Assembly: GCA_964187785.1 (NCBI GenBank)
Contig: OZ076409.1
Span: 22,384,001-22,448,000 of the forward strand
Origin: Amphiscolops sp. MND2022
Lineage: Eukaryota
Length of the DNA: 64,000 nt
Reading direction: 5' to 3'
In this document: positions 8,801 to 64,000 of the stretch, piece by piece
Layout of the letters: every line of letters begins with the position of its first letter
Numbering within the stretch: position 1 is the stretch's first letter
Program-made: the position numbers and the translations under genes
The notes under the pieces: model-generated
What the model was told of the DNA's origin: nothing
Database searches by the model: none
Seen by the model: only the letters and a program-made list of their open reading frames with translations

Positions 8801-10112
8801 GACCTGTAAAAGCTCCGGTGGATCCAAAGCCTCAACCTTTTATCCACAATGGAAAGCTTCTTGTCAGTCGCGTTGTCATCCACGCAGAGAAGACATACAC
8901 CGGTCTAGAAAGAGAATGTATCTTCCCTGTGGATGTCGTGCTGGAAGAATTATCTAAATCCAAGATTGCTGAGGAACCTTGTCCTCGCTTCAAGGAGTGG
9001 ACGAGCGATCTCTGTCTATTGGAATTCACACTTGCCGTCACAGTGCCTCCTGTCACTCCTAACATTGTATTTGGACCTTTCAATTATGAGAAGGAACCCA
9101 TCCAAATGGTCCGCTGTATTACCGCTGACCTCCTATCTGACAAATACGGCATCACCTGTCATCCTGGTGAAGTGTATCGCCCAGCCCAAAATTGGTGGTT
9201 GCTTGTAACTGCCCAACATGCTCACTCTTTGGTCCAGCCTGACAGCTTGCGGAGCTGTCTAGAGAGTTTGCGGACTGTTGTCACTGAGGAACTCATTTTG
9301 TGCTTCCACATCGTTGATCTTTATCGTGGAAAACTACGGTTCCGATGGTGGCTAGAGCTGATTATCACTTTGTTCGCCAGCTTCCCTCGTATCCGCCTTT
9401 TGGATGATTGGACCCATTCCTTTACCGCGCCTGTAACGATCCACACTGCACTTGGTACCCTGGATTCATGGTCAACAGCAAATGTGGATAATCAGTCTCT
9501 GTCGAGGTCCGTATGGCAGGATCTATCTGCTATTCGTGGACAGAACCATATAGACCCAGCTGATGAAAAAGGCCCCGGACGTCAGATTGTGTTTCCTGGT
9601 GCCCTACGACCAAATTTGGTCGATTACATTGTTTACGACCAAATTGACTTCTTGCAGGTGCAGGGCCACGTAGCAATTTGCTGCCCTGCAGACCTTAACA
9701 CCAATTCCGCTGCCTTGCGCTACTTTCTTCGCGAGTGTGGCAGCGACAAAATATTCCAACTTCGTCCAACAGTTGGTGAAGTCCTAACTCACCCATCCTC
9801 ATTGTCTTTAATGGATAATCAGGTTATTCACTTGATTCATCCGACGTCATGATAACACGCCCCTCCCAGCGTTCACCACAAATCACCGATGACTTTTTCC
9901 TATGCTTGGAGCACTTGAAAGCTTCATTATTGTCCAACGAAACCCCTGATATTCACTTCACCATAGTGGACCCTGAGCGCCCACTTCGCAGCTTGGACAA
10001 TTTTTATCATAGTGTCATGGACGTTTTTGCAGGAACTGATATCACTGTATTTCTGCATGACCGCGTCTATGTCTCCATTGCCAGCATTGAACAATTTCGT
10101 GGCATCACTTAG
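2874..10112 (+). pseudogene. pol: Element A pol: protease, RT, RNase H, integrase and long C-terminal extension (AT-hooks, Cys motif, two macrodomain-like units)
   Basis: Protease VDTGSGVS and LLGRNFL; RT SPWASGIVMV, MPFG, YIDD; RNase H LDTDASA, RVDNQAL, HRNADGLS; IN HDAMGH...CLTC, YDH/SDN/GLVER, WRGPH; broken by stops (5283, 7882) and frameshifts. Confidence 0.95.
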
Positions 10113-34780: not shown

Positions 34781-36511
34781 CCCGTACTGACAACCCATGG
34801 TAACCCACCAGTGGCCATCGGTGGACCACCGGTGGCCACCGGTGGGGGAAAATTAGGATACATGGAGGCTTTCCCATCGGTGGCCACCGGTGGTCCACCG
34901 ATGGACCATCGGTGGAAAATTCGAAAATTTCGAAAATGAAAATTTCGTTCAAAATTTCTAGAAACAGGATTTACTACACGAAATACCTAAACCAGTGGTT
35001 TTTCAGTGATTTTAGATCTCATTCCAGTGTTTTTTCGGTACTTTTAGATCTTTTTCCAGTGGTTATCCAGTGAGTTAAGATCTTATTCCAGTGGTTTTTT
35101 CAGTAGTTTTAGATGTTATTCTGGTGTTTTTTCGGTGATGTTAGATCTTATTCCTGTGGTTTTTTCAGTGATTTTAGATCTTATTCCAGTATTTTTTGGT
35201 AATTTTAGATCTTGTTCCAGTGTTTTTTTTTGTAATTTTAGACTTCAACCAGTAGTTTTTTTAGTGATTTTAGAACTTGTTACAGTGCTTTTTTGGTAAT
35301 TTTAGATCTTATTCCAGTGGTTTTTTATGGTGATTTTATCTTATTCCACTGGTTTTTTATGGTGATTTTAGATCCTATTTTAGTAGTTTTCTCAGCGATT
35401 TCAGATCTTATTCCAGCGTTTTTTTCTGTAATTTTAGACCTAAACCAGTGGTTTTTCAGTGATTTTAGATCTCATTCCAGTGTTTTTTCGGTACTTTTAG
35501 ATCTTTTTCCACTGGTTATCCAGTGAGTTAAGATCTTATTCCAGTGGTTTTTTCAGTAGTTTTAGATGTTATTCTGGTGTTTTTTCGGTGATGTTAGATC
35601 TTATTCCTGTGGTTTTTTCAGTGATTTTAGATCTTATTCCAGTATTTTTTGGTAATTTTAGATCTTGTTCCAGTGTTTTTTTTGTAATTTTAGACTTCAA
35701 CCAGTAGTTTTTTTAGTGATTTTAGAACTTGTTACAGTGGTTTTTTGGTAATTTTAGATCTTATTCCAGTGGTTTTTTATGGTGATTTTATCTTATTCCA
35801 CTGGTTTTTTATGGTGATTTTAGATCCTATTTTAGTAGTTTTCTCAGCGATTTCAGATCTTATTCCAGCGTTTTTTTTCTGTAATTTTAGACCTAAACCA
35901 GTGGTTTTTCAGTGATTTTAGATCTCATTCCAGTGTTTTTTCGGTACTTTTAGATCTTTTTCCACTGGTTATCCAGTGAGTTAAGATCTTATTCCAGTGG
36001 TTTTTTCAGTAGTTTTAGATGTTATTCTGGTGTTTTTTCGGTGATGTTAGATCTTATTCCTGTGGTTTTTTCAGTGATTTTAGATCTTATTCCAGTATTT
36101 TTTGGTAATTTTAGATCTTGTTCCAGTGTTTTTTTTGTAATTTTAGACTTAAACCAGTAGTTTTTTTAGTGATTTTAGAACTTGTTACAGTGGTTTTTTA
36201 TGGTGATTTTATCTTATTCCACTGGTTTTTATGGTGATTTCAGATCCTATTTTAGTAGTTTTCTCAGCGATTTCAGATCTTATTCCAGCGTTTTTTGGTA
36301 ATTTTTGATCTTATTCCAGTGGTTTTCCCAGTAATTTGAAATCTTTTCCGATTTGTTTTAGTTATTTTAGATTTCGACAGTTTTAAAAGGATACCACAAA
36401 ACTTATTCGTGTGGGTTTTTTCACTAATGACCCATTTGTGGTGGCCACCGGTGGGGCTGCGATGGGAAATGCGGTGGCCACCGGTGGGTTACCATGGGTT
36501 GTCAGTACGGG
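34781..36511. mobile_element. Non-autonomous TIR DNA transposon, probably CMC/EnSpm-type
   Basis: 29-bp perfect TIR CCCGTACTGACAACCCATGGTAACCCACC; CA dinucleotide on both flanks (2-bp TSD); repeated palindromic subterminal CCACCGGTGG motifs; no transposase. Confidence 0.8.
34986..36375. repeat. ~32-bp minisatellite arranged as three 453-bp, 14-unit higher-order repeats
   Basis: Unit ~TTTTAGATCTTATTCCAGTGGTTTTTTCAGTGA; variant cctaaaccagtgg recurs at 34986, 35439 and 35892. Confidence 0.92.
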
Positions 36512-37811
36512 CAAACCAATGGTAATTTCAACAACCAATTATTTCAATAATGGATTGTTTCGAAATCCCTTTTTTAGCTTTAAATTCAATTAATCGCATG
36601 TGCCATTTATGTTTGACAAAGCTTGGAAGCAATAAATCTAATACTTTATTTAAAAAACAACACAATTTCCACTCAAAAACAATATAAACAATACCTTTAC
36701 CCAGTTCAATAATAGCTTATAACCAAAAATGTTATAAGTGAAGTTAGAGTCGAAGAGACAAAAAAATATCGTATTATAAACTCACTATCTGCTAGTTTAT
36801 TCAAACAGAAGAGACAAAAACAAAGAAACAGTTTTCGAACGACTTAACGACAAACTTTGTCCAGACCAACGAATTTTTTTTACTTTCAAAAGTAGCGTGC
36901 AAATGAAACAGCAGGTTTTCATACGTCTATTTCAACTGAAACAAAAAGGAAAAGATAAGTTTCAGTTCGTTCGGTGGAATTTATGAAATGCAAGCAACAA
37001 CGAACACGAATACGCTCTACCCTGCTGAGACGCATTTGAAGTTCAATGCAGAGCCAAAAAAGGCACATGTTGAAGAATTGCCAGTTACGGAGCAGTTCAA
37101 AATTTGTAGCAAATGGAATGCCTCAAAAAAGTCACATCTATGGCCGCTCCGAAACAAAGCCGTTGAATGACATTCGTAGGGTGTTGAATAGCTATCTGCA
37201 ACACCAAATTACTGAAAAAAAAATAAATTCGTTGATCATCCAGATGAATGGACAAATATCAGAGAATTTCTCGCACTTCTGGAGCACGCCGTGCGATATT
37301 CTGAGTTCCTTAACTTGAAAAGCATTTCTGATCCGCAGGAAGTTTACATGATACAGTTCAGTTTCATTGCTGAATTACTCCGAACACACAGTGAAAAAAT
37401 GGAACAACTTCAGCAAAATGAAGTGAAGGAGCCAAAATCAAGAGAAACGTTGGTGGTATTTCGGACTACTCATGATCTTATGGGCATAGGCTCTATATAC
37501 AACAAATGCAAAGGCACACGCAAGCTTTATAGTGCCAAGAGACCCAAAACAAGACATTCTAAATTCGCAGAAACCTAGCCAACAACTATATTAAAACTGG
37601 AAGAGGTACTGTTTTACCGAATGTCGATTTTACCCTGCAAAAAGCCCTGCAATGCCGGCGAACTATAGTTCCTTTCCACAACCATCCAAAAAACCATAAG
37701 CTCATCGATCCAACAAGACCGGAAATTCCCAAACATGCCTCCTTTAAGATCTAAAGAACTGTGTTTCTTAACAGGAAATCTACAGCAACAGATTATTGAG
37801 TGAAGAAAAAC

Positions 37812-38526
37812 TGTAACGGCAACTGCCCATATCGAAATTTTCGATGCAAAAATTCGTTCAAGATCTGAAGTGGCACCTAAACATGGTAAAGGTGAAAGAC
37901 CTGCCAGAAATCGTACTACAACAAGCAGAGGTCGCCGCCCGCGGAGAACGAGCGCAAGAGACGACTAAAAAGACGTCTATCCCTTCTGTAGAACACGGTA
38001 TTGTGCCCATCCCTGGGAGATTAACACTACTTTAGCAGCAGAAACCAGTGTTCCCGATGCTTGCCTGAGAATCCCTGCGGTGTCCTGTGTGGTGACTAGC
38101 GCTAGCGCTGGGAAGCCGAGGTCAATTTCCATCAAATGACTCAAACTTTTGATTTTATTGTGCTTTTCCTTGCAGTAAATTGATATGCTCGAGAGCTGTC
38201 CCTTAACATCTGTATTTACCCAATTTGGCGATGTCGATTTTATCAGATTCTCCAATACTATGGCTCAACCTTCGCTAGTTTTCAGCCCCCTTTTTCAAAG
38301 GCTAGTCGAGCAGTGGTCTTGGGTCATGCAAGATGCCTGTTGCTTTTAGCAATTACAGACTAGCACCAGGCCAGAGAGTTTCTTACAAGACGGTTCCCCA
38401 CCTTGGGACTGGCTCCTTTGGAGGGAAAATGAGCTAGGGCCGCGGAGATCTAGGTCCCGGATCCTATTCGCTGCTCTGGTTCCTCCATTCTACGTTGCGG
38501 TTCAAGCGCCAGCGCTTATCGTTACA
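37812..38526 (+). repeat. 5' LTR of element B (715 bp)
   Basis: TGTAACG...CGTTACA; start resembles the element A LTR start; 37871-38526 matches 54034-54690 with about 8 differences by eye. Confidence 0.88.
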
Positions 38527-38541
38527 AAGAATCTCATTTTT

Positions 38542-38559
38542 TGGCGACCACAGAGGGAT
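38542..38559 (+). promoter_or_regulatory. Primer-binding site of element B (tRNA-Arg(UCG)-like)
   Basis: TGGCGACCACAGAGGGAT resembles the complement of the animal tRNA-Arg(TCG) 3' end. Confidence 0.75.
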
Positions 38560-41137
38560 CGTCTTGGGAAACTTTCCCTAGCGGTTTTTAAAAGATCTGG
38601 CCCCTGGGGATCAGCGCCAAGCCCGTTTCGACTCTGAAGGAGAAGCTAGAGTTTTGTTCCTATTTTAACCGATTGCTTGTATTCTTGGCCGCAGGAACGA
38701 AGGAGACCCTGAAAACCCGTAGAAAATTGCGTTTTCAAGTTCGAAAATGGCATTTTGAGGTTGAAAAAAGGAGCGAGAAGCAGAGTTTTGCTTTTTTAGT
38801 CGTATCACGTCCTACTGGAACCGGGAGAGGCGTTGAACTAGAGAAAACGCCGAAAAAATTACGTTTTCAGGTGTGAAAATGGTGTTTTTAGGTGTTTTAG
38901 AAGGAAATCGCTATTTTTGTGTGATATGTTGTGTACCCATCAGCGGGTATCTTTTTGCAGGTACAGAGGACCGTAGCCCGTGGCTACGGGTGTTTACCAG
39001 GTTTTTCAAGCTATTTTCAGCCATTTTATGCCATGCAAGAAGGTAACTGGTGGATGGCTGACTACGAGCCAGCGAGGCGAAGGAAGTGTCAAATTGTGTG
39101 TTGCCTACTTTCTACTCTCATTTCTCGTGGAGACGTCCTAGAAATATGGTTTTTAATGGACAGCAAGTGCAACATCAGACGATGCCAATGGTCCAAACGC
39201 GTGTCTCTGTCTGGTCTAGGTGTGGAGAAAAAGAGTGGTGAAGATGCACCCCGTGACCAGACGCGTCGCTCAAATGACTCATGGTGGGCGAAATTTTTGA
39301 AAATGCACCTTTTTCGACAGGGAATCGTCGGTGTAGGTCAGTAAGGTTTTATCGCAAATGTAACGACACCCTACGAAGTGTTTTTCGCGAAAAAGATGGT
39401 ACTTGGAAGAAAAAACCTCAATTTTGCGTTTTTTTGGTGTTTTTCTTGGTTTCGAGCACTAGTGCTCAGTGGAACCAGGAAAACCTTGTGAAAAGTGCTA
39501 CAAAAAGCAGCTACAAAGCTCGAGAAAACTGGTACAAAGCACGAGAGGCAGTATTTTGGCCTTCAGTTGTGATAAAAGTGCCGATTTAGTGACAGAAAAG
39601 TGAAAAAGGGGAAATTTGGCCTAAAAGGCACCCAAAACACAGACGTACACACGTGTAGAGACGTAGCAAAGCGGTGTACGGTGTTACCTCAAACGTAACT
39701 AACCCACAGGACACTAACTGCAATTTTTGTAGCGGATTCAGGCAGCCCGGGGCTCATACGGTACGAAAAACTTGTGATTTAAGGCATTTTCAGGCATAGA
39801 AAGTGCATTGTCTGAAAGTCTTGGGAGCGAAGCCTATTTGAACGGGGCGGATTGGAACGCCCTTATTTTCTGTTTTTGTAGCAAGAACAACGCGTGGTGG
39901 TGAAAATTGCGCGGATAAACGCCCATTCAGTGCTGAGAAAAGTGGAAAATTGCACTGAATTTGATCAATGTTCCACATAACCGGACTCTCTCTGAGCTAG
40001 GGTCGGGTCATCGATTCCTGAACCCTAGCTAAAACGTGGTTGCATTTTCGTAACCACCACCAAAATAAACGCTAGTGCCGAAAACTTGGTGAGCGTATCG
40101 CTCACCAAAGTCGAGAAAAGCTCTCTGACATTTCGACTTCAGAGAATCGAAAAAAAGCAAAAAAAGGTCCAAAGCTGCAGGACTGTCAGTGCCCAATACC
40201 TAACGGGTACAACCAATTGAGGGTTTATCCCAGTGCTACGGATAATGGGGCAACACGTAGGTCCCATTCTGCCCGCCGTATCACTTTCTGAGGTGATCGT
40301 CTTGGTCAGTTTGTAAAAAAAGTAGTCAAAAGCAGTGTTTTTCGTGTATAACGTCCATAGTGTGTCGAGACCTCAAGTAAGCGCTTGCGTTTCAATTCGA
40401 CCATATTAGTGGCATTGAAAGTGCCCACTGACATAAACTACCAAGTTTGGTGCCGATTTGTGTGATACTTGTTGAGAAAATAGGAAAAACGTGGCACCCA
40501 AAAAGGTGCGCAAAAAGGCAGTTTTTTCTTAATTTTTCCGAGTAACCCGGGCACCTTAGCCGACGGGTGGAGCTATATTGCAGCACACCATCGTAACTTG
40601 TGCTAGTTCCTACGTTGCTGCAGAGAATTTGAGCTTGCTAGCTCTTTCCAGTGGACCGCAATCTTGAAAAAGACGTGAAAAACAGAGTATTTTGGTACAT
40701 AGTGGTACCGCACGTCTGTACCTAGGTGAAACTGTGTAGAAGGGGTGCAGCTCAATTCTGTGTTCATTTTCGTAAACCTACAAGTATCTAAGATCTGCTG
40801 GTCAATTTTGGGCTTGATACGGCGCTTCCATCGCACACACGAGCCTCTTGAGTGTTACTGTGCGAATTTTGGAAAATCCAAAATTTTTTTGAAATTCTTG
40901 TGGGAAAACGCTGTGCAAATTTGAACAGCCTACAAGCCTTAGAACGTATTTCGAAAAATCTTGGACGTTGAAAAACATCAATTTCCTTAAGTTCCCACCG
41001 GGACGAATAAAGGGTTGGTCTTGATCTAGAGGCCCTGGTATCTTCGGAAACCTAGTCTGAGACCCCCTGAGTTGCTAGCGCCTGCTCGGTTGCTGGTATT
41101 AAGCGTATCAGCCACACAAGAAGCGGTGAAATCCAAC

Positions 41138-43615
41138 ATGAGTTCGCAGTCTTGGGTCACCATTGAATCCTCGATGGACGGTTAACGTTTTTCAGACGTC
41201 ATGTCTGACGAAGTTACTATTGAACAACAACGCAAGGAGGAGCTCGCCGCTATGGTTCATCCCTCCGAGGGTTCAGTCGTTTCTGGAAACTCCCGCCGAA
41301 CCGAGCAATGGGCTGATGAGACCTGCCGCGAGAGGACCAATGAGGCAGAGGAAGGTTGGCCCAACTCAAATATGACCAGTGACCCTGCTGCTGAGGAAGG
41401 ATGCTAGCGCGCACCCCTGGGTGAGGAGGCAAATCCCCGCCTACAAGCTACTGTGGACCAGGACCTCACCTATGTAGGAGGCATGGGCTATGCGAGACCA
41501 CAAGGGCATGGGGTAGCTCGAGGAACCACTCGAGTTTGTGCCTATGGGAAACACAAGAAATTTCGACCGCCCATGGTGAATGCAGGAGAGCGCCTCCCAG
41601 AGGCGTCTCGTGTGAGGAGCATGGATGGTTCAGTAGCCTCGTCACAACGGTCTTCGGTGTACAAAACAACACTATTGGATGCCCAACCCGATACCCAACG
41701 TACCTTAGCAGGACTAGCCAGCACTCGTGCTGAATGCAATGAGCAACACCATGCCATCGTAGAGAACATCAGGACGATGCAGACAACGATGCGAGAAGGG
41801 TTGCAGGTCAGTGACCAGTTGCGTACCGCGCAAAACGTACAGAGTGCTCGGGTGGATGCATTAGGTCACCGGATGGGTGAAATGAACGACAAGCTGATGG
41901 CCCGCGAGCTCCGCGTGGAGACCCAAATCAATGACTTGAGCAACCAAATGCACACCGTACTCAATGCCATCAACATCATGAGGCGCGAAAGGTCTCTCCC
42001 GCGACAACCCAGTTTGGGTGAAAGTGTGCAAACTGGAAGCTCTGCCCGAGCCCCGGAACAGCCACACCCAACTCGAGCGATAAAGTCTGAACTGGTGAGT
42101 GCACTAAAACCCAGCACCTCCAGGTCGGCGGTGCCCGAACCCCGAAGCAAGGACTTAGTGCTCACCATGCCTGACACGGAGCGCAAACCTACACGAGTGC
42201 AGATGAGAGGGCCCCACGACTCGTATTCGGCAGATTCACCGATGCCCTCTGCAGCCCTAGGCACCACTCGAGACCAAGGTGTGGACCCGATGTCAACGAT
42301 CTATCTAGATCCTCTACCGAAGTTGATTTATCCAGCACCAAAGCTACACTAGGGTCCCAGACTGATGGAGCCGCGTATGTGACGGCCCCTACCACGGTGT
42401 CCGGACGGAACTCACTGTACTTGACCGCCAACCTGACAGCCGATGACGGAATGCCCTCGGGCACTCCTTGTGCGAGCAGCACTCGAAAGACAGAAGAGAC
42501 TATGGACCTATCCGTACAAGCCACTCACGGTAGCGACGACGGGACGCGTGAGGTGGAACCGAGAGACGAGGAGGCAGAAGTCGTCTCCCCTGAGCAGCTA
42601 AGGTTCACTGCTGCCATATCCAAAGCCATGTCTAAGGAACTGGCACCTTTGTTTGCAGGGAGGGACTTGGCCCAAACAAGGCCCAATGTCTATCGTGGCT
42701 CCAAGGACGGGTCTATCGATGGATAGATCCTAGTCATGCAGAGATACCTGAAAAGGATTCAGACCAAGGTCTCGGCCGAAGACCGAGCCTGGAGCATCAT
42801 TGGTCACCTCGAGGGTGAAGCTCGCAACTACATCATTAACAAAGCCGAATCTGAACGCGACACCCCCGAGAAAGTGTTCGAGCTGCTGTCCAGTCGCTTT
42901 GGCGCTGGAGGAAATCGCATGCAGGTGCGGCAAATCTTCCAAAGCCGCGTTCAACAGGAAAAAGAAGACTGGATGCTCTAGAGGGTCTTAGAAGTCAAGG
43001 ATTTCCGCAGGAGACTATCACTATCAAGCGTTATGAAATCCTGCAGCGCTTCATGGAAGGTGTACGGGACCCACTATTGAGGCGGGAACTTGCCATAGTG
43101 TACGCCTCGGAAGTCTTTCTGACTGAACCACCCACGGTGGAGTCCCTGCGCTTCACCACCCGTGAATTCCAGCGCAATCGTCCCAAGCCCACACAACCCC
43201 TCAACCCTATGATCCCAGATTAGCTATGAGGTCTAGACCTCATCCCTTCGCACCACTACCTCCCAACAAGATGGTGCTACCTCAAGGAGTGATACCTCCC
43301 CCACCTGCGAGCAATGCCCCGCTAAATCAAGCAGCGGCACAACCTGCCGCGCGTTTAAACTTGGGTGCTTGCTTTAATTGTAGCCAAACCGGGCATTTTG
43401 CTCGAGACTGCCCCAATCGCGACGAAGCTCGCAAACCACTGGCTGCCCTCGAACCTGAAGGCGTGAAGGTCACTACTGAAGACGTGACTGATGGTGTTCT
43501 GGAAGGCTATCCCGGAATTTATCAAAGCTATCTCGGAGTCTTTGATCATGCGGAGGTGCAATGTGGTGAACACTCCCACGCCCCGAAACCCAACGACGAA
43601 TTCGCCTACAACTGA
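41138..43615 (+). pseudogene. gag: Element B gag with coiled-coil N-terminal region, capsid-like domain and one CCHC knuckle
   Basis: ATG at 41138 is in frame with ORFs 41201 and 41453; RAWSIIGHLEGEARNY...LLSSRFG; CFNCSQTGHFARDC. Confidence 0.88.
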
Positions 43616-43678
43616 TGGGCCGAAGTCGAGTCGGCTGGCGTCGCTGCGCACAGAGTACCGTACCCTTAGAGGTGACCC

Positions 43679-46600
43679 TTGGAGGATGATCGCGTATTAA
43701 TGCTACACCCGGCGGAACCGTCAGCATTCTATATCCCGCTAACAATTACTTGCGGTACCAAGCAAGTCCAAACCTGCTTAGAACCTACCACGTTTGACCC
43801 ACAAGGACGGACGTTGATCTCGATTCACCTGATGTTTGCCGCTGAACAAGTGCGCAGGCCAATATTAACCCTGGCGAAACTCTGGGTTGAACTGTCCATC
43901 CTCTTTAAACGAGTTGAGTTGCCCCGTCCCAAAGAATGGTACGCCCCTGGAGAGTCTGAAACCCTGACGACGTATTCCCCAGTACCGATCCGTGCCACGA
44001 TGGATGGTGTGGATGTGAAGTTCGAGGCCTGTGTGGTGGTGGATGTGTTCCCACCTGGCATATGTCTGGGTCCCCAAGAACTGAAGTGCTACAACATCAA
44101 CCACCAGGAACCCACTGGTGAGGCACGTATAGACGAGCGTGCGTCGCTTGTTGTTTCTTTCGTCGTGCCCCACGCGGCGCCCATCCCACTACGTTGACTG
44201 GTGGACACTGTTTCAAGTGTATTGGTATTGACGTTTTCCGCCTTCAACCGAGTGGCTGCTCGGACCGGTACTGTCCCAAAGCCCTATCAAATTGACTTGT
44301 ACGCTGCCGATGGAAAAACAATGAAGACCTATGGTCTCCCTGAGCAGATTCGTTTCCAATTGGGAGGGTACGAACTTGAAACCAACTTTGTCGTAGTAGG
44401 CGATGCAATGGGTGTGGAAGACTTTCTGCTAGGCCGGAACTTCCTCCGTTCCTATCAGGTCCTGGTGGATCTCACGTCCATGAAGATCGTTGTGCGAGCA
44501 CCCGTGAAGCCCGTTTGGCATCATGCACCCGCACAGGTAGATGATACTTCGCTAGCTACCCCGGTTGCCTTGGACTGCGATTTAGTCCTACAGCCTTTCG
44601 AGCGCACGGTGGCTAAAGCTAAGCTCATCACTGACGCGCTGGAACCATTGATCTTTCGAAGTGTGGCGCTCAACGCCTCATTGTCTGACACCTCATTGCA
44701 TAATGTCGTCTTTTTAGAGGACAGCGTGGCCAATGTCAGTGAGACAGGAACATTGTACGTGAGTTTGATAAACCTTACCAGCAACCCACAGCGTGTGCGG
44801 TGTGGTGTTCAACTGGGCACCGTAGTACCTGTGTCATTAGTGTATCAGGCTGTGCCTCAGAATCTGGACTCCCCTACAAAGACCAGCAAAGAAACTAAAG
44901 CCGACAACGGTCGTGCAAATTTTGTTTATAAAGTGTACAGTGAAATGAATCTATCCACTGCTTCTGAGTTGACTTCTTCTTCAGAATTTGAGTTTTTGTC
45001 CTCAACTGATCCTAGTGAGGCAGGGCTTTCGGAGCGTGAATGGGGCGCTAGCGCCTGCGAGTCTCTAGGCAATATTCTTAAAGAATTTGATGATTTGTTC
45101 ATGGAGCATAAGGCTGACATCGGCCGTTGCACCATCGCTAAACATACGGTAGAGGTGGAGCCTGGGGCTGTACCGCATCGTGAAGGTGCTCGTAGGATGT
45201 CCCTCGAAAAAGCTGAGCGTGCCAATCAAGAGGTGCGAAACCTGCTGGCCTTGGGAATGATACATCCTTCACTGTCCCCTTGGGCAAGTGGCATCGTAAT
45301 GGTAAAAAAGAAAAACGGGGAGTTGCGCTTTTGCTGCGACTTTCGCCCGTTGAACGAGGTAACCATCAAAGATGCCTACCCCTTGCCTCGCATCGATGAA
45401 AGCCTGGCACGGCTGGGCAAGTCCAAAATTTACTTCAGCATAGACCTTGCCTGGGCTTTTTGGCAAAATCCTGTGCGAAAGGCGCATCGCCACAAGACCG
45501 CATTTGCTTGCGAGTTAGGGTTTTTCGAATGGCGGCGAATGCCGTTCCGCATGTGCAATGCATCAGCCACCTTCCAGCGAGCAATAGCGCGAGCGCTACG
45601 GAAGATTGTTAACCGCGAGGGTAGCATGGTGATGGCCTACATCGATGATATTGTGATTGCGACCGAAACTGTGGAAGATCACATGGCACGCTTGCGCGAG
45701 GTCTTTGAATGCCTCCGCGAGGCTGTTTTCAATATGCGCGTAGCCAAACGTGACTTCATGAAACCAGAGATCAAGTATCTGGGACGCGTGGTCTCTGCAG
45801 AAGGCGTGAAGCCAGACCCGAAAGCCGTTGCCAAGTTGCGCGACTGGGAGATCCCTCGCAACAAAACGGAAATGCAGAGTTTTTTGGGATTCGCCAACTA
45901 CTATCGCGACTTCATTCCTTGGCACGCCAAGCTGGTCGCGCCCCTACATGCCGTCACTGGACTAAACGTCACCTTCACATGGGGTCCCGAAAAGCAAAAA
46001 GCGTTCAACGAAATCAAGAAAGCACTGATCGAGGCGACTGCGCTTCCGCAGCCTGATTCCGAAGGAGAGTTCGTGTTGGACACCGATGCCAGCGCTGTTG
46101 CCATTTCTGGCATCCTGCACCAGTGGCAGGGTCCTCCAGGTGAAAGACGCCTGAGACCTATTATATGGCAGCAGGAAACTGACCACCCGACAAGCCAAGT
46201 ATGGAGCTCCCAAACTGGAAATGTTTGCAGCTTATTCCTTTATTGTAAAAAACCACAGTTACCTTTGTCCTCGAAAGTTCACCCTGAGGGTGGATAATCA
46301 AGCCTTGTCCTGGTTGAAAACATATTCCACGGATCAAGCGTTGATCGGCCGATGGATTATGACCTTGGACAAGTATCACTTTCGTGTGGAACACCGCCCA
46401 CGAACTCAGCATCGCAACGCTGATGGCTTGAGCAAACGAACCAATGAATATCGATGCCGAGAAAAGCAGCTTGCGCAGCAGCCAGCCGCAGGTGAGCGTT
46501 GGAATTTCCTTTCCTCCGATGAATTCGACAAACTCCCTATTGCCCCGAGGTTCGACCTTCAGGGTCGAGTAATTCCAAATCACACCGATCTACCTGCGCA

Positions 46601-49600
46601 CTTGCGGAATCTGGAGCCTGAGGCTCCTAACCAAGTACTTCGTGTGCTTCGTCGTACTCAACGGGCGAACAGGCGGGACAGGCAGGCGAAGGCGTTAGCT
46701 GCGCCTCTACCACCTCCGCCCCCTCCCGTGCTACAGCTGCACGAGGACTTCTACCCAGACTATCCAAAAGACTGGATAGATGTCACTACCGAGGCTAGCG
46801 AGGACTACTTGCTGCCAACCCATGCTGTTAATGTGCCTTCTCGAACCGTGTATTCAATTGCAGGACAAAGTGCAGTTACGCTGCAAAATACTCCTCCGGG
46901 GTTACGTGACTCAATCATGGCTCTCAAAGACATCGACACTGAGCTTCATGAACATGCTCACACCGTGCATGGGATCAAGGATTTAGTTTTAGCCCAAAAC
47001 CGTGATGTACATGTGCTAGCACTAAAACAATTGGTGCTGAGCGAGTCCATTGACCATGACATTTTTCCTGAGAACGTGCGTGAGTTCGCACGTAACTACT
47101 TTCGCCAGAAAAAGGATCTCTTGTTCATAAACAAGATTGGTGTTCTTTGTGTGCAATATTCCCCCAACCAACGCCCTTTGCACAAACGTCCGTGCATGAT
47201 CGTCATGCCTCAATTGTACCAGCACGAGATCTTGTTCCGTGCGCATGACGCCATGAGACATCAGGGCATTTCGAAGGTGGTGGCTCGGATTCAAGAACGC
47301 CACACGTGGCCTGGCATCCGACGCAGTGTTGGCCGTTATGTTGGCCAGTGCCTCACCTGTCAACAGGTACGTGATAAGCCTGGTGACGTACGATTCCAGC
47401 TGAAAAACATCCAGGGTGGGTACTTTAACGAATTGGTCCAGTACGACCACCTGAAAATCAGCCCCTCTGACAATAACAATAACGGCATCTTGGTCATAAT
47501 CGACCAATTCTCCAAATTCGCGGAGGCGGTCCCACGTAGTCATCACGACTATGACGCTGTGACCTCGTCTCGGTTGCTGCTACAGAAATGGTTTGCCCGT
47601 CATGGCTCACCTACTCGTATGCAGTCAGACAAGGCTCCGAACTTGACTGCCGAAGTATCCAATGAGTTTTTGAAGGCAGTCCACGTCACGAAAGTGACTT
47701 CCACTGCAGGACATCCACGGACCCAGGGTTTGGTAGAACGCCAAAACCGCACACAGTTAACCTTGCTGCGCGTCTTTTGCTCGCGCCGCATGCGCGATTG
47801 GGACCAGTGCCTTGATGAGGTCATGGGTGCCTACAATTCTACGAGGCACGCCACCACTGGCTTCTCGCCCTACATGCTAACACGGGGCGTTGAGAAGGCT
47901 ATTCCTCTTACCTTTTTGTATCCTGAGTTTGCAGCTAAATCCTTCGATACGCATGAAGCGTACGTGGATCATGTGTTGGCTCGCCAACAAGAGATTCACG
48001 ACTTAGTGCGACGTAATACGCACCAGGCTCAGCTGCGTCAAAAATTGCAATACAATCGCGCTATTCAAGCACGAGCTTACCAGCCGGGAGAACTCGTCTG
48101 GGTTTTTGCCGCTATGTGCCGCAAAAAGGCTCCCCCAAGCTGATGCGTGCTTGGCGTGGCCCGCACAAGGTGGTACAGGTCTTTCAGGACGGTCGTGTCT
48201 ACGTGCTGGACACTGGCCAAAAAGGTCATTTTGAGTGCCTCAAACCGCACAACAGTGGACCGCTTGAGCTCGCCGCAGCGCACGCGGACAGCGGAGAGGT
48301 GGCAGTGCTCATGGACCCTGAACCTGAGCGTTCCGTCGACGTGGTCGATGATGACAAATCACTACCTTCGTATAAGACTGAACAACTGCTTTCAGAGGCG
48401 TCCGATGTGTCTTTGCCTTCGCGCAGACGTCACTGGATGGACACTCGCCTGCGCACGAAACTCCGTGCAGGAGGCTCGCGCATGCACTATCAGCAGTTTG
48501 ACTATTCCACTTCGGGTACTGATGACGAACTGTCTGATGTCATGTTGCTGGTACCTCCTGATCCCGTGGATGCTGATCAAGTGGAGCCTGAGGCTCCCAT
48601 GCCTTCTGCAGATCAATCGGTATCACCCACTCAACACCTACCTCAACTATTCTCTGACCATGAGCGTGCGCGCTCTCCGTTACCACAAGTATCTTCTCCT
48701 GCGAAACAGTCGTTGTTGCCGGGAACGTCGGCACCCTTGTTGACGAACCCATCATTGACGGATTTCCTCAGCAATTATCCCATCTGGCCGACTGCTCCTC
48801 CAATTCCTCTGAAGTCTACCAGCAGCGAAAGCGACGATCAGTTCAACGTGCCTAGTGTTCCCTCGATATTGCCCGGAGCGGAGACCGCTCCTTCTTCCAA
48901 AAGGGGGAGGGGGAGACCACCCAAGGCGCAGAAGAAACGGCTGGTCCGAGCAAAGGCAAGAACGAGAAAGAAAGAAACGCCAACGAAAGTCGAAACCGAG
49001 GCCCCAGCCGAAACAGCAGTCCCGGCCGAGACCGAAGCCCCAAGGTCTGCGGAAGCTCTAACGGAGGCCTCTGAAGCTCCTAGATACCAGCTGAGGAGTA
49101 AGCGGCAGCCACACTACAAGTGCGGAACTTGCGGGCTGCGAGACTGTGTCTGCCTGTTAGCCGTAAATGAGAACCGGAGGGTTCCCACTGGAGCCCGGCG
49201 AGTTCCTCCGGAAGGGGGAGAAAATCTGGTGCACCGCCTTACGGTAAGAGCCGAGAAGACCTACTCCGCCGTGGAACGATCTGGAGACTATCCGGTTGAC
49301 ACTGTTCTGGAGAAGTTGTCATCACCTGGGGTAGCAAAGGCTCCATGTCCCCGATTCAAGGAGTGGACTAGCAATGGAAAGGGGTTAGAGTTTACCCTGG
49401 CCACCGTGATGCCCCCTGTGCCCAGTAACATCGCATTTGGACCATTCAACTTCGAACGGGAACCTGTGCAAATGGCCCGGTGCATCACTGCTGATCTTTT
49501 ATGCGATAAGTGCGGAGTTCAAGTGGAACCCGGTGGAGTGTATAGCCCAGCGCCGCATTGGTGGTTACTGGTTACCGTTCCACGAGTGGAGGCAATAGTG

Positions 49601-50455
49601 GAACCGTTGCACATGTTGTCCTGTCTAGAGAGTCTAAGGACCCTCACCACTGCGGACCTGATACTTTGTTTCCACATCATTGATTGGTATCGGGGCAAGG
49701 TGAAATTTGCGTGGTGGTTGGAATTAATCATCACCTGCTTCACCACCTATCCCCGAATTCGACTACTAGAGGAGTGGACTCACACCTTCGAGATTCCTCT
49801 TTCCTTGAAAGCCGCTCTGAGCACTCTGGACACATGGGTCAAGGCCGGCAGTGACAATCGAGCGATGCCACGCTCGTTATGGCAAGACCTGGCTGCAGTC
49901 CAAGGGCGCACGCCTCGCGTGTGTCAGCCTGCTGATAATGGGCCTGGACGAGAGACTTTTTACCCGGGAGCCCTGTACTCAAATTCAGCAAAACGTATTT
50001 CGTATGATGTAACCGATTTTTTGCAAGTGGAAGGTGATGTAGTGTTAGCGTGCCCCGCTGACTTGAAAACTAACTCAGCTGCCCTACGATATGTACTGCG
50101 GGAGTGCGGCAAGGAGAGCGTGTTTTCCCTGCGGCCAAAGGTGGGTGAGATCCTCACCATCCCACCTGACATTAATCCTAATCCCAACCAGAGCATTCAC
50201 TTATTGATAGTCAGAGCAAGCCAGCGTGCACCGCTGCTGACTGATGACTATCTGCGTTGCATGACGCACTTGATACAGCGCTTGACGGACAAGGGATCCG
50301 CAAGGGTCCATCTGCCCATACTGGACCCAGAGAGACCAGCATTCTCTTTGATCAATCTGTACCACACCCTGACGAACATATTTGAGGGTACTGGTATTCA
50401 CGTGGTCTGGCACAACCGCGTGTACGTGTCGATATTGAGTATAGGGCTGGAATAG
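43679..50455 (+). pseudogene. pol: Element B pol with the same C-terminal AT-hook, Cys motif and tandem macrodomain-like extension
   Basis: LVDT(V)SS and LLGRNFL; YIDD; LDTDASA; HDAMRH...CLTC, GLVER, WRGPH; 779-aa terminal ORF 48116-50455 collinear with A 7942-10112. Confidence 0.95.
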
Positions 50456-50721
50456 CCTTGCCATATTGGTTCCCCCTGGTTCCCCCATCCCTTTGATCGT
50501 TGTTGTACCTGCGGGAGAATCTTGAACTCTCTCATTGAAATGTTATCTTGCAATATGTTTGCTTTGTACTGTTTTTCGTTCTAGTTAGTTAGTTAGATTT
50601 GAATCTAAGTTCGTTACGGTTCCCTTATGGAGCCGGTGTCGTGCTATCGTAACTGGCCTTAAGCTCTCACCAAAACTCACCTTGTAAGCCTAACGGTAGT
50701 CCTTTTTAGACCTATGAGTTA

Positions 50722-53700
50722 ATGGCTGACTATCCAAACAACTCAATGCCTGCAACAGGGCCTCATAGTGCAAGGCCTCAGGAACCTGCGCGAGCGCAGA
50801 GGGTCAACCAGGCCCAGTATGTAGAAGACCGTTTGAGAAACGCCCGCCTTCCACCAGTAGCCGTAGCTGGTGTGGCCGCCTTGCTCACCCAGCTTGAGAC
50901 TATGCAAACGCTGCCGGGCGTATCCTTCTCAATCGTGGCGGAGGTAGCTGGCTACCACCGCACCTTAACCTGCCTGAACAGTGCTTGGGACGGATACAAT
51001 CTAACCCACCAATTCCTGGACGAGCGGTCCACTGCAACGTATGGCCGAAGCCAGGGCACCAGATTTGAACAAGAGGCTTCATTGCGTATGATACCTGCCA
51101 ACGTTCCATCATTGCCACCGCCCCCAGTACCAAAGCCAGTGCCGATGACGCCGACCTATTCTGGCTCGCCTGTTTTTGGGACACCGTAGAGGGCGCCGCA
51201 CAAGGTGTTACAAACCTCAACTAATCCACCAGTCTCTGATCGGGAGCCCTCGGTGTCCCGGTTGCCACCAATACCAAATCCAGATTTAACCGGGCGAAGT
51301 ACCGGCGAACAAGCTGTGATAGTGGCCCTACAGGCCGTTGCCAACTATCCCAATTCCTCCGACTTTGTCCGGGCCGTGGAACAACGAATCCCTTGTCTGG
51401 CCACTTACTTGCAAGCTGCCGCTCAGCCCTCGGGCTGTGATCCTCCCGCCACTTTTGTCGAGACAGCATCCGTGGACGCTGAGATCCCAGCTGGACCGAG
51501 TGGAACTGCCATGGCTGGTCCCCGTGAGGAGGCCGGGCGAAAGCGACTGACAGGAGAGAATGCCGCTGTTGCCCACACTAGCTCGGTAACAGAAAGCCCA
51601 ACCAGTCGTCCCCTCCGGACAAGCGTGCCGATGTGCCTCAACCACAAATGAAAAGCGTAGTAATCGTTAGGCCTCCATATCGTGTAGGCCACCGGGGCCG
51701 AAGTGCGCCCCAAATGACCATGGAGGAAGCTATCGAACAGTACGGAAACCCGGATGCAGGCCCTGAAGTGAGCTCCGTGCCCTCGGGCACAGGTCCCGCC
51801 AACATGTCTCTGGAGGCGGCTGAAGCCATAGAAGAAACCCGCCCGCCAGCTTTCCTCCCCCATCTGATGACGTGTCTGGCTCAGTGGTAACCAGTGATAG
51901 CAAGCGAATCTGGATGGCCGCTGAACGCTTGCACGCAAACATGTGTGCGATCAAAAGGAGAGCGCCCCCCACCGAAGCCGACCAGAGAGAGGTAAATCGG
52001 ACCACAATTCCAGCGCAGGTTACTTGGCTACTGCGCCCCTGTGACGCGGACATGACCGATTAAGCTTGGGAGCAGCGCGCTCGAGAACAGCTGCCAACAA
52101 AACCGAATGACTACATGGCACCCGTACAGCACAATATCACCGAACAGTTCCCCGCACGGTATATACTTCGAGAAGGTGAAACGTGGGAGGCAAATGCCCG
52201 CTACGCCCGCAACATCATCTCCATGAAGCCCCTACTGAAAGGTGCCTTGCAGCGAGCGCGCTACTGTGTGGCGGTTGATTCCACCTGTAAGAGTGACTTG
52301 CCCATTGACAATTTGATGCCTGACGTGTTAGTGTTAACTATGCCCTTATCCCGCTTCGCTGAAGTAGCCGAAATGGTCGGATTGATGTACGATCCGAACT
52401 TGAGAGGATCACTGAAGAGCCACCCCCACAGCGCGTGATCATCGCCAATTTGCTGGATCATATGGTGTGTGAAGGGTTGTTGCGTGAGTTGGATACTATC
52501 ATGACCGACACCCGACGACCCGGAAACGGCGCAGCCCTAGTAAACGTTGTTGCTGACGCGATGGAGCATGCCGCGGGGATCCTTCGTGGTCGCCTGGGAG
52601 CGCTAGCGCTCTTCGTGTCCCCGCCGGAATTTATGTACTGGCGACAGAGCTTGCAGCAATTTGTTTACATCCCGCTAGAGGTGTGCAAAGCGCGCAGGAT
52701 CGAGTTCGCCATCTGTGCCCCAAACCTTCGAGTGGAGCGTGGAGACCTACGCCCTGATGTATTGTCCTACGCAGCTTTCTTTGTTGCCATCTCCAGAGTA
52801 TTGATCGCTGTGGAACGTTCAGGAAATGCACAACTGACGATAGATGATGCTGTACTCTTCGATCATGGCACGCGCATGTGACGAATGGCCTTTGATCTTG
52901 ATGGCGACCGCGCCTAGCGGGAGTCTAATGTGACCGAGCGAGAGGCTGTCCGGCGTTACAACTGGTTAGTACGCAAAGACAAGGAGATTCCCGTGCGGAC
53001 GTAGTTGGCAGAGCTGGTGAAACAGATTGGAGCATGGCCTGCCGCACGCACGGTCGAAAGGACTATTCCCCAAACCCACTTTGCCGCGGGAATTGAACCT
53101 GTCAAGCTATCTGTAGGCCTAAGACATATCGTGGCCGCCGAAGCAACCAACTTGAATATCGAGGTTGATGCCGCTAGCATGACATACGCCCAATGGTACC
53201 AAACAAAATTCATAAACAGAACCCTCGCAGAAGTAGCTCGAGAGCTCGACTGTCCCATGGAAGCCTTCTGCACCAGTCTCGGCCTGGGATGGAACATTGA
53301 TGTAGTAGCTGCCGAGTTTTCACTCACCACCATACAGGCTGATAAACTGTTGAAGACCATCGGAGAAGCCACCGTTGGAGAGGTGCTGGCGCTCGCGCTA
53401 GCGATGGGTCCGGCGAAGTTTGTAGCTGGCCCTCTGGTTTTGCTGGTCGACATAGTGATATCTTGCGACTTGACCTCATTCTACAGTTATCTGATCCTCG
53501 CACAGGGGCAACTACGTAGTCTGACCCGTTGGGGCCACCTGATGACCTCCAAGGACCAACAGGATTATTCTGCCCAATTGGAACGCATGCGTGCGTCTGT
53601 CCAACACGAAAGAGCATGGCCCCGTCAACTGGTACTCCGCACCCCTCAGCTTGGACGGAGTTCCCTTCCGATTTCCATGGTGCCAAGATTTTGTGCGAAA

Positions 53701-54033
53701 GGTGATTCGCGCCAGCACTAGTGCTGGTCCACCCATAGACCCTCTGTACAGTTTCAAATGCATTACCTTCCCGAACCGATACTGGAAGGAACCGCTGGGT
53801 TGGCCAAGAGCAAAGCCCGTCGGACGTGCCCCCGAGATTTTCAACCGACAAATTCAACATTTGGAGTTGGCACAAATCCCGAGTTGGATCGAGGGCGCCG
53901 CCCAAATCAGACAAAGGAACCTCCAGTGTCGTATCACTCCATTCCCCAGAAAATCTACGTGGAAGCCCCAGGGCAAAATGACGATGTCGGGACGCTGCAC
54001 GACGAAATCAACTCCGTGCTGGGCCCCCACTCC
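50722..54033 (+). pseudogene. Element B ORF3 (env position), ~1100 codons, decayed and 3'-truncated; contains an SGNH-hydrolase-like domain
   Basis: Chain of + ORFs at 50722, 51205, 51633, 51872, 52115, 52435, 53005, 53591 and 53758 separated by single stops or frameshifts, with coding-like composition. Confidence 0.75.
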
Positions 54034-54690
54034 TGGCACCTAAACATGTTAAAGGTGAAAGACCTGCCAGAAATGGTACTACAACAAGCAGAGGTCGCCG
54101 CCCGCGGAGAACGAGCGCAAGAGACGACTAAAAAGACGTCTATCCCTTCTGTAGAACACGCTATTGTGCCCATCCCTGGGAGATTAACACTACTTTAGCA
54201 GCAGAAACCAGTGTTCCCGATGCTTGCCTGAGAATCCCTGCGGTGTCCTGTGTGGTGACTAGCGCTAGCGCTGGGAAGCCGAGGTCAATTTCCATCAAAT
54301 GACTCAAACTCTTGATTTTATTGTGCTTTTCCTTGCAGTAAATTGATATGCTCGAGAGCTGTCCCTTAACATCTGTATTTACCCAATTTGGCGATGTCGA
54401 TTTTATCAGATTCTCCAATACTATGGCTCAACCTTCTCTAGTTTTCAGCCCCCTTTTTCAAAGGCTAGTCGAGCAGTGGTCTTGGGTCATGCAAGATGCC
54501 TGTTGTTTTTAGCAATTACAGACTAGGACCAGGCCAGAGAGTTTCTTACAAGACGGTTCCCCCACCTTGGGACTGGCTCCTTTGGAGGGAAAATGAGCTA
54601 GGGCCGCGGAGATCTAGGTCCCGGATCCTATTCGCTGCTCTGGTTCCTCCATTCTACGTTGCGGTTCAAGCGCCAGCGCTTATCGTTACA
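54034..54690 (+). repeat. 3' LTR of element B, lacking its first 59 bp and the PPT
   Basis: Matches 37871-38526 and ends CGTTACA. Confidence 0.9.
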
Positions 54691-54877
54691 AACACTCAGG
54701 ATGTCAGAAAAATTAAGAGAGCCTTCTAGGCTCGCAAAAGACTTTGTTTCTGCTGACGAATTGAAGCGAGTTCGAGTGGAAAAGTATTCTGAAAAAGCAA
54801 GCAAAAAACCATTGCAATAAAAACAGTTTAGTGCGCGACTGTGCTTGTCAGAGTCTGTCACTAAGACTGGATCTTCG

Positions 54878-58914: not shown

Positions 58915-59834
58915 TGTTGGCGCCAGTCATCAGAAAGCAGAGAAAGTCAATTTGGAACATGCTGGTTGAGAAACAAGAACTTAAAACTCTTCGAAACTTA
59001 GATGAAAATTTGAACGAAAACCTCACCTTGCTAAATCGAAAACCCCCCCAGTCGGGATTTTCTCTACAACTATTAACCATAGAGACTTGAAACTTGGCAC
59101 ACATATGCAAGTACATAATACGGACACACCGGCTAAGTTTCAAGGTCATTCCCCCATTATAACCCCCATTACCCCTCACATGTGTAGTATTCAAGGTCAT
59201 TGAGACAAAAATGTAAACATTGCTATTTACCCTTCTGACCACATTAGAATGCAGCTCTGTTGAAATTGATGATTTTTACATAGTGTAAACATGCTTCTGA
59301 GCCCACCTGACCAACATGCCAAAACCACCACATTCTTCGTTTACATAGCCAATAACTTTAATAATTCACTTAAATGTCATTTATTTATACAACATATTTC
59401 AACTGATATTTGCTTATACTTACTGTAGAATTGTAAACCATATGTATACCATTATTAGATAGAGATTTTCTCCACTGAATAGCTATAGTCAAGTTGGGTC
59501 TCAGGACCGCGAGACTAATTAATCAACTTCTCAATCTTCACAACTTTTCGCTAGAGTCAGAGCAACTAAGTAGCTACTCTCATAATAGGAGAGCCGGAGC
59601 GCGTGAAGATACTGTGAGGGAAGTGTGTACGGATCACATCGGATCCAAATCAGTGCAAAGAGGAATCGTAGGAGATTCCACGGGTCACATCGGACCCATC
59701 AAGCCAAAAGATACAGTCCTTTAAAACAAGAAACCAGGAATTGTTTAGTAACGGTCCACAGTACTAAGCAACGGATCAGGGCGGCGTAAAGTTTGTCAAG
59801 CCTCAGCGCAGGATAAGGGCAAGCAGCCGTTACA
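58915..59834 (+). repeat. 5' LTR of element E (920 bp)
   Basis: TGT...TTACA followed after 2 nt by the PBS; near-identical to 63214-64000. Confidence 0.9.
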
Positions 59835-59836
59835 TT

Positions 59837-59853
59837 TGGTCCGCCGACCCGGA
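59837..59853 (+). promoter_or_regulatory. Primer-binding site of element E (tRNA-Tyr-like)
   Basis: TGGTCCGCCGACCCGGA resembles the TGGTCCTTCGAGCCGGA PBS typical of BEL/Pao. Confidence 0.7.
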
Positions 59854-59959
59854 CAACTCGTTGGTGGACGACCCGGACTAGAAGAAGACGACTCGTTGGT
59901 GGACAACTGAGAAGATTGCCCAAGAAGAACAAGTGTCTGGATCTTGGAGTTGCTGATTT

Positions 59960-60240
59960 TGTGTCTCTGGGAGATTGGGCTACTGTGTCTCTGGGAGATT
60001 GGGCATTGTGTCTCTGGACGATTGTGCCACTGTGTGTCTGGGCGATTGTGCCATTGTGTGTCTGGGCGATTGTGCCACTGTGTCTCTGGAGATTGCACCA
60101 TTGAGACTCTGGGAGATTGTGCTATTGTAACTCTGAGAGATTGGGCTACTGTGTCTCTGGGAGATTGGGCTATTGTGACTCTGGGTGTTTGGACTATAGT
60201 GACTCTGGAGTTGGGACTACTGTGTACTCTGGGAGTTGGG
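59960..60240 (+). repeat. 24-bp tandem repeat (~11-12 copies) in the element E leader
   Basis: Unit ~TGTGTCTCTGGGAGATTGGGCTAC. Confidence 0.9.
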
Positions 60241-60607
60241 CTTTAGCGGCACTCTGGAGGTGTTTGTGCATCAATTCTATTTTTGAGACGAATTGTATTC
60301 TTTGGGATCGTATTCCTGATTGAAGCAAAGATCTGGTCTAAGACGTCATTGCAAGTAAATCCACCAAGTAAAGAAAAGGGATCAAGTCAGAGGGACAAGA
60401 TCCACCGAGACAATCAAGTTTGTCAAAGAAGGCAAGTATAATCGACAGTATTGGGTTGATTCTTCAAGAATTGACGATTGATTACCGGATTGAGCAGTTG
60501 ACGCTTTGTATCTGAGAAATTGCAGAGTTGGGAAAAGTGACAAAGAGTACAAGAAAAAATTGTGAAGAGCGAAAGCCCCCAGTGAAACAAAAGAGTCATC
60601 TGAACAA

Positions 60608-63268: not shown

Positions 63269-64000
63269 GAAACAAGAACTTAAAACTCTTCGAAACTTAG
63301 ATGAAAATTTGAACGAAAACCTCACCTTGCTAAATCGAAACCCCCCCAGTCGGGATTTTCTCTACAACTATTAACCATAGAGACTTGAAACTTGGCACAC
63401 ATATGCAAGTACATAATACGCCCCCATTATAACCCCCATTACCCCTCACATGTGTAGTATTCAAGGTCATTGAGACAAAAATGTAAACATTGCTATTTAC
63501 CCTTCTGACCACATTAGAATGCAGCTCTGTTGAAATTGATGATATTTACATAGTGTAAACATGCTTCTGAGCCCACCTGACCAACATGCCAAAACCACCA
63601 CATTCTTTGTTTACATTGCCAATAACTTTAATAATTCACTTAAATGTCATTTATTTATACAACATATTTCAACTGATATTTGCTTATATTTACTGTAGAA
63701 TTGTAAACCATATGTATACCATTATTAGATAGAGATTTTCTCCACTGAATAGCTATAGTCAAGTTGGGTCTCAGGACCGCGAGACTAATTAATCAACTTC
63801 TCAATCTTCACAACTTTTCGCTAGAGTCAGAGCTACTAAGTAGCTACTCTCATAATAGGAGAGCCGGAGCGCGTGAAGATACTGTGAGGGAAGTGTGTAC
63901 GGATCACATCGGATCCAAATCAGTGCAAAGAGGAATCGTAGGAGATTCCACGGGTCACATCGGACCCATCAAGCCAAAAGATACAGTCCTTTAAAACAAG
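63214..64000 (+). repeat. 3' LTR of element E (cut by the window edge; 28-bp deletion relative to the 5' LTR)
   Basis: Preceded by purine-rich AGGAGAAAAACAGGGCCGGCAA; matches 58915 onward. Confidence 0.9.

Follow-up and report, generated by a model that had tools for sequence, protein, structure and literature searches.

The window analysed here is a stretch of 64,000 nucleotides of Amphiscolops sp. MND2022 (OZ076409.1, positions 22,384,001-22,448,000), in which positions 37812-54690 hold a damaged copy of a ~19-kb Ty3/Gypsy long terminal repeat (LTR) element. The polyprotein of this element closes with two tandem units, predicted to adopt the macro fold of TARG1, and these units, located in the frame at 48017-50455, are the subject of this study. 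The sequence-only reading of the window had placed two tandem units in the open reading frame (ORF) following the integrase. Both are found, at 49430-49777 and 49997-50413, and their tandem position behind the integrase holds in intact relatives. The continuity of the frame does not hold in the window copy itself, where gag-pol consists of six pieces in alternating frames with nine stops (tblastn against an intact natural relative) and the macro-bearing frame is discontinuous with the integrase core, in contrast to the continuity shown by intact natural relatives. The features which carry the module are the following, all on the plus strand.

40943..50455, plus strand: broken gag-pol with zinc knuckle, protease, reverse transcriptase (RT), RNase H, integrase and C-terminal extension (Pfam; tblastn with an intact natural copy)
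47208..47717, plus strand: integrase H2C2 finger and catalytic core (Pfam PF17921, 1.8e-14; PF00665, 1.8e-7)
49430..49777, plus strand: unit 1, a predicted shortened TARG1-class pseudo-macrodomain without Lys84, with D-x-Y-R-G for GxGxD and ~25 residues of loop 1 and helix 1 gone
49778..49996, plus strand: connector between the units, strand-helix-helix in predicted models
49997..50452, plus strand: unit 2, a predicted full-length TARG1-class pseudo-macrodomain at the polyprotein end, with Asp20 kept at 50015, Arg for Lys84 and D-P-E-R-P for G-C-G-L-D

The order of the encoded functions, gag followed by protease-RT-RNase H-integrase, is that of Ty3/Gypsy elements (Pfam; intact frame of a natural copy), and the hallmarks of LTR elements, a TG...CA LTR pair, a tRNA primer site, a purine-rich tract and a target duplication, are all present. 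Used as a query of the source genome, the 378-residue C-terminus returned 4,503 candidates, and among the 109 scored matches, a biased sample as they are the best of these, 105 are free of stops and 23 belong to open frames 3,100 or more amino acids long. The relatives have one gag-pol frame of 3,000-3,300 amino acids closing with the two macrodomains, and in one intact copy a frame of 3,192 amino acids, running from gag through the second macrodomain, is followed by an ORF of 1,430 amino acids. Both units close all eight long frames fetched, which represent five families and whose polyproteins are 47-65% (in one case 95%) identical to the reference. Intact elements measure 18.7-19.7 kb (e.g. 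G000:C1:2967001-2985895), and 13 LTR pairs show only 0-3 differences in 715 bases, one pair differing by an indel. With LTR pairs this nearly identical, the families have therefore moved very recently, and the family is abundant, young and recently active. Nested insertions also occur: the C11 copy lies within another LTR pair, and the C2 copy has a 5' flank similar to a related element's purine-rich tract.

Both units are predicted to have a macro fold of the TARG1/ALC1-like class. A search of 1.84 billion representative sequences provided 261 relatives, and a unit-2-anchored profile of 37 sequences, compared to 177,635 PDB sequences, gave five matches at E<=10, all of them TARG1/C6orf130 and the best at 6.5e-6; one distant relative alone also matches TARG1/C6orf130 in the PDB (E 5.8e-5). 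An AlphaFold2 model of both units has a predicted local distance difference score (pLDDT) of 83 and a predicted TM-score (pTM) of 0.56. In the fold searches made with it, the rows of which cover unit 2 only, TARG1 is the top match by Foldseek (6.8e-9, TM 0.83 to the target) as well as by VIA-align (Z 15.8, root mean square deviation (rmsd) 2.6, 139 residues aligned), DarG and Poa1p being next. For unit 1 modelled without unit 2 (pLDDT 86, pTM 0.77), TARG1 is again first (Z 11.3, rmsd 4.0, 119 aligned), with two bacterial ALC1-class domains within 1, and the eight Foldseek matches at E<=0.001 are all TARG1 (1.3e-4). The profiles of the two units match each other with a probability of 82.8% and an E of 9e-6, the best of 30 column-shuffled controls reaching E 0.016, and the unit-1 profile recovers, at E <1e-5, eight domains of a sister Gypsy lineage which carries a single domain of this kind (the single lineage). 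Because of the profile, fold-search and shuffled-control results taken together, the resemblance of the units to TARG1 is more than chance, and the TARG1/OARD1-like fold put forward in the sequence-only reading is borne out as a prediction: the modelling which that reading had proposed places TARG1 first for each unit, with a predicted macro fold for both and a profile match for unit 2. Given its low pTM, the two-unit model would point to units without a fixed orientation to each other. Sequence identity to the TARG1 class is 13-18%, and in unit 2 Asp20, the Thr83 region and Pro118 are recognisable.

In TARG1, Asp20 serves adenine and a GxG loop the pyrophosphate, together with Ser35, Thr83 and the catalytic Lys84 and Asp125, and the family pattern is TKx(30,35)Px[IL]GxGxD (PMC6397177). 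This pattern occurs in none of the eight long-frame copies and in only one of 317 collected proteins, the beetle cellular protein P0317. In P0317 the intact TARG1-type domain is followed by a second, degenerate macrodomain-like stretch, as judged by eye. To follow the fate of the single residues, columns were counted in distinct rows of the tandem lineage (195) and of the single lineage (24), each with at least 70 columns, others being dropped. Lys84 has become Arg in 175 of 188 tandem rows (Lys in 1) and in 24 of 24 single rows, i.e. in 199/212 overall; Gly121 has become Asp (148/156 tandem, 19/20 single); Gly123 is Glu in the tandem lineage and Gly in the single lineage; and at Asp125 the tandem lineage has Pro (123/151) and the single lineage Gly (19/20). 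The phosphate loop of unit-2-type domains reads D-P-E-R-P or D-P-G-R-G instead of GxGxD. The first loop is equally altered, as Gly43 stays Gly in 1 of 173 tandem and 1 of 21 single rows, Gly41 is lost, Ser35 is mostly Pro, and Asn, Ser, Lys, Ala or Arg replace the loop-1 glycines. Asp20 is kept in unit 2 (146/159 tandem, 18/19 single). Unit 1 carries a D-x-x-R signature (D in 120/125, R in 113/124), has mostly Ala at position 84 (98 of 128 rows, which include a few cross-matching domains of the unit-2 type), and shows Asn in 72 of 86 rows at the Asp20 column in a MAFFT alignment of less certain register; ~25 residues of its first loop-helix region are absent. By these defining residues neither unit is a member of the TARG1 family, in agreement with the earlier suspicion that the catalytic Lys and the GCGLD loop are lost and that the units are pseudo-enzymes. 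The D-x-x-R signature is common to both units, which makes it likely that unit 1 arose by duplication inside the retroelement lineage and is not a second capture.

As judged from these replacements a hydrolase is unlikely. An enzyme with a new chemistry (Arg/Asp/Glu), which would remove ADP-ribose from an element protein, RNA or cDNA, would fit the near-invariance of the new Arg and Asp, and catalysis in this class has diversified, SCO6735 having Gln at the Lys position (PMC9967889). However, both catalytic residues and the substrate-binding loops of TARG1 are gone, and the single substitution K84A abolishes TARG1 function (PMC8501950); we therefore hold this alternative to be very unlikely. 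ADP-ribose reading is doubtful as well. The sequence-only reading had proposed an ADP-ribose reader or decoy, but the residues which hold the pyrophosphate are replaced lineage-wide and the pocket region of unit 1 is reduced. A narrower version, in which unit 2 would bind ADP-ribose or a related adenine nucleotide via a remodelled pocket and so read or sequester ADP-ribosylated chromatin or DNA, draws on the retained Asp20 and Pro118, on the near-invariant basic residue at 84 and on the existence of pure readers in the ALC1 class (PMC7050489, PMC9967889). Against it, D-P-E or D-P-G puts an acid at the phosphate position, the loop-1 glycines are lost and the unit 1 pocket is incomplete, and we consider it unlikely.

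The units are not drifting freely. The ratio of nonsynonymous to synonymous substitution rates (dN/dS, Nei-Gojobori) in units 1 and 2 is 0.06 and 0.18 for C1a-C5 and 0.08 and 0.07 for C13-C10, and 0.05-0.07 for unit 2 compared with C8, C4-C11 being too close to measure. The connector between the units gives 0.05-0.19, the linker 0.16-0.26, and RT and integrase 0.00-0.06. Between distant families the units remain 44-70% and the linker 27-38% identical, with synonymous sites at or near saturation. Given the low dN/dS and the retained identity, both units are therefore selected, and both are under purifying selection, less tight than that on the core enzymes. The comparison of genomic copies which had been suggested from the sequence thus gave values of 0.05-0.18 wherever they could be measured. 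A decaying passenger without function would be consistent with the faster evolution of the units relative to RT and integrase, which are 67-97% identical between families, but these dN/dS values, the open frames in five diverged families and the confident folds make such a passenger extremely improbable.

The single lineage places the pair in a wider context. P0316 is a Gypsy pol of 1,402 amino acids (RT, RNase H, integrase; 45% identical to the present one) which ends in a single domain of the rebuilt type, and a metagenome scan gave 22 loci with a single-type domain, among them L058 with an integrase upstream of the domain and L060 with a relative of the second ORF downstream. At L054, which has 414 open residues upstream of the domain, no unit-1 match was found there. 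From these sequences the pair likely originates from duplication of a single domain. An insertion of unit 1 into a small domain, homologous to the stretch that precedes the macrodomain in the single lineage, gained no support in a comparison of thin profiles, the scores being within the shuffled range. Single Poa1p/TARG1-like domains are annotated in a number of insect Gypsy pols and also in certain non-LTR elements. A TARG1-type or tandem post-integrase macrodomain in a Gypsy pol was not found described in the literature searched, the coverage of which is incomplete (subscription journals, Repbase, supplements). The same holds for a rebuilt TARG1-type module after the integrase; macrodomains in LTR elements have already been reported.

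Between integrase and module lie ~270 low-complexity residues, and three further features of the extension bear on the role of the module.

48902..48925, plus strand: RGRP motif, AT-hook-like, in the low-complexity linker; present 1-3 times after the integrase in 8/8 long-frame copies and never upstream
49121..49153, plus strand: CGTCGxRxCxC cysteine cluster, a candidate zinc site; four Cys in 7/8 copies and three in the eighth, pLDDT ~57-60
49232..49426, plus strand: conserved beta-rich segment ahead of unit 1; pLDDT 75-96, outside the fold-search rows

With the Pfam AT_hook model the RGRP motif gives an E of 0.33, which fails the cut-off, and the beta-rich segment is 40-63% identical between distant families. 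Because of the post-integrase position and the precedent of the coronavirus SARS-unique domain (SUD), the tandem pseudo-macrodomains are best read as a non-enzymatic binding module, which may link a host protein or nucleic acid with the integrase or with the replication complex; we regard the case for this reading as evenly balanced. By analogy, what the element carries is most likely a pseudo-macrodomain module that either stays on the integrase or is released from it. In such a scenario, an ancestral Gypsy element would have captured a TARG1-like domain, the pocket of which was rebuilt (T-R and D-P-x-R), and the captured domain would then have been duplicated and its upstream copy trimmed. 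As to the conserved Arg and Asp, these probably either seal the former pocket or provide a new surface for binding. With an RGRP motif and a Cys cluster just ahead of the units, the extension would most likely contact chromatin or DNA at integration, occupying the position where chromodomains occur in chromoviruses.

A number of observations weigh against a binding module of this kind. With a net charge between +1 and -8 the units range from neutral to acidic, which disfavours direct binding of nucleic acids, and unit 2 retains Asp20, an adenine-binding residue for which a wholly dead pocket would have no use. The single-domain relative P0316 is without the RGRP motif. Against the macrodomain assignment itself, no Pfam Macro family matches either unit or any of 42 relatives, the single sequence from the window retrieves no macrodomain in the PDB but two chance matches, and the Atlas search gave a sub-threshold lead only (0.83). 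As for the residue counts, the equivalences derive from sequence alignment rather than from superposed coordinates, and the 195 rows of the tandem lineage, being related copies, do not count as independent. Finally, the flanks of 13 insertions share no target (GC 0.31-0.43, no tRNA gene within 1.5 kb), so that the targeting envisaged in the sequence-only reading was not seen in them, although 13 flanks are too few to exclude targeting at the chromatin level.

The absence of any insertion bias in these 13 flanks is also in line with a module which is freed by the element protease and acts away from integration, as a particle scaffold, an RNA or translation helper or an antagonist of host silencing, in which the macro fold would serve solely as a surface for protein interactions. 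The ~270 low-complexity residues part the module from the integrase, and since gag and pol share a single frame its yield would be Gag-like. SUD, in turn, binds Paip1 and viral RNA (PMC10326071). However, the adjoining RGRP and Cys motifs point to DNA or chromatin and no cleavage site was identified, and such a released module is possible but remains a minority alternative to the integrase-linked binding module.

The known systems which come closest share only parts of this arrangement. TARG1/OARD1/C6orf130 (4J5S, 2LGR), in a class which includes DarG, SCO6735 and Poa1p, has the minimal macro fold predicted for the units, but here Lys84, Asp125, Ser35 and both glycine loops are replaced, unit 1 is shortened, and the domains are in tandem and fused to a polyprotein. 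The SUD of coronavirus nsp3 (Mac2+Mac3) likewise consists of two tandem macrodomains in a polyprotein, is without enzyme activity and binds nucleic acids and proteins, not ADP-ribose (PMC10326071). Structurally it is more distant than TARG1 (Z ~7), and in place of the neutral to acidic charge of the present units it has basic patches. The analogy is a functional one and implies no common origin. Chromoviruses and other Ty3/Gypsy elements also carry a host-derived accessory domain C-terminal to the integrase (bioRxiv 2021.11.30.470311, PMC13524379). In contrast to these, the module is a predicted macro domain and not chromo or PHD, is in tandem, and no targeting was seen in the 13 flanks. Basta et al. 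reportedly described, in 2009, macrodomain ORFs in epsilon-like endogenous retroviruses of fish. In these retroviruses the macrodomain is found in an LTR retroelement too, as additional ORFs (PMC4977317). The bdelloid Vesta and Juno elements resemble the present ones in having an extra non-envelope ORF after pol, a third ORF of the GDSL or DEDDy type, and the main text of PMC5408684 does not mention a macro domain; for the second ORF here, profile and structure searches gave no support for such a type.

The remaining features of the element, and the module of a related element A in the window, are listed below.

37809..37811, no strand: 5' target-site duplication AAC, 3 bp, identical to 54691-54693
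37812..38526, plus strand: 5' LTR, 715 bp, TGTAAC...GTTACA
38542..38559, plus strand: primer-binding site for host tRNA-Arg(TCG), to the 3' end of which it is complementary, 15 nt past the LTR
50710..53992, plus strand: second ORF, broken and 3'-truncated here (1,430 amino acids in an intact relative)
54034..54690, plus strand: 3' LTR, first 59 nt absent
54691..54693, no strand: 3' target-site duplication AAC
9060..10088, plus strand: two-unit module of element A (related family), with an approximate start and a frame break within unit 2

The two LTRs of the window copy are identical in 649 of 657 aligned columns (98.8%). A leader of more than 2 kb (38560-40940) precedes gag, and between protease and RT (~44520-44860) lies a beta-rich insert without a Pfam match, which by eye we take to be degenerate-dUTPase-like. 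The target-site duplication is 3 bp in 18 of 21 full-length elements: in 10 of 13 without a match at 2, 4, 5 or 6 bp, in 7 of 7 judged by eye, and in the window copy. In Gypsy elements target duplications usually measure 4-6 bp. No report of 3-bp duplications in Gypsy elements was found in the literature searched, of which coverage is incomplete. The value may not necessarily be unprecedented, as IS3/IS481 produce duplications of 3 to 5 bp, "analogous to LTR retrotransposons" (PMC2836005). In all families seen, the tRNA-Arg(TCG) primer site is located 15-16 nt beyond the LTR end, the C4/C11 family having a different primer-site sequence, and with the site so displaced the end of the cDNA would bear a long overhang. 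The primer pattern has 255 matches in the source genome and is located in tRNA-Arg genes identified by ARAGORN. Of the 100 matches listed out of these 255, 99 fall in one tandem array of tRNA-Arg genes, spaced ~174 bp apart (G000:C9 from 57537788).

The second ORF follows pol in the families studied here and encodes 1,430-1,500 amino acids (e.g. L032:616-4908). It has no Pfam, PDB or Atlas match and belongs to no known family among these; its relative downstream of the single macrodomain (L060:5388-6128) is 24% identical (E 5e-10). D-S-T and D-H blocks are invariant in five of five sequences, an SGNH/GDSL-like pattern by eye only, without profile support.

The most far-reaching version of the capture scenario is that a Gypsy element took up TARG1, rebuilt its pocket about a near-invariant Arg and Asp and doubled it, and that the product would be a new reader which directs the integrase towards a mark on chromatin or on damaged DNA, or a shield of the incoming cDNA from an ADP-ribosylation defence, in a lineage which perhaps is a mechanistically distinct LTR clade with a 3-bp stagger and a primer 15-16 nt off. 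This is a tentative proposal and a rather unlikely one.

The window holds further repeats. At 13223-24545 lies an LTR element on the minus strand, the LTRs of which are 92% identical and which has remains of RNase H; another mobile element, with integrase remains at 27256-28833, is located at 27253-31457. At 58915-64000 an ORF bearing DUF5641 (60968-63268) lies between 96% identical repeats, an element that we take to be BEL/Pao-like. Tandem arrays are found at 34966-36381 (32-bp units with a 453-bp higher-order period) and at 59942-60266 (24-bp units).

Taken as a whole, the element offers a well-supported case of a retrotransposon which keeps a fold of the host ADP-ribose pathway under selection with its chemistry removed, and it makes a series visible, from a host-type domain to a single rebuilt domain and on to a tandem pair. 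As Pfam misses the units, annotation of the lineage may be incomplete. Small domains with a good predicted fold lend themselves to direct tests of ligand and partner, the identity of which would tell if ADP-ribosylation counteracts retrotransposons, or bring to light a new use for the macro fold.

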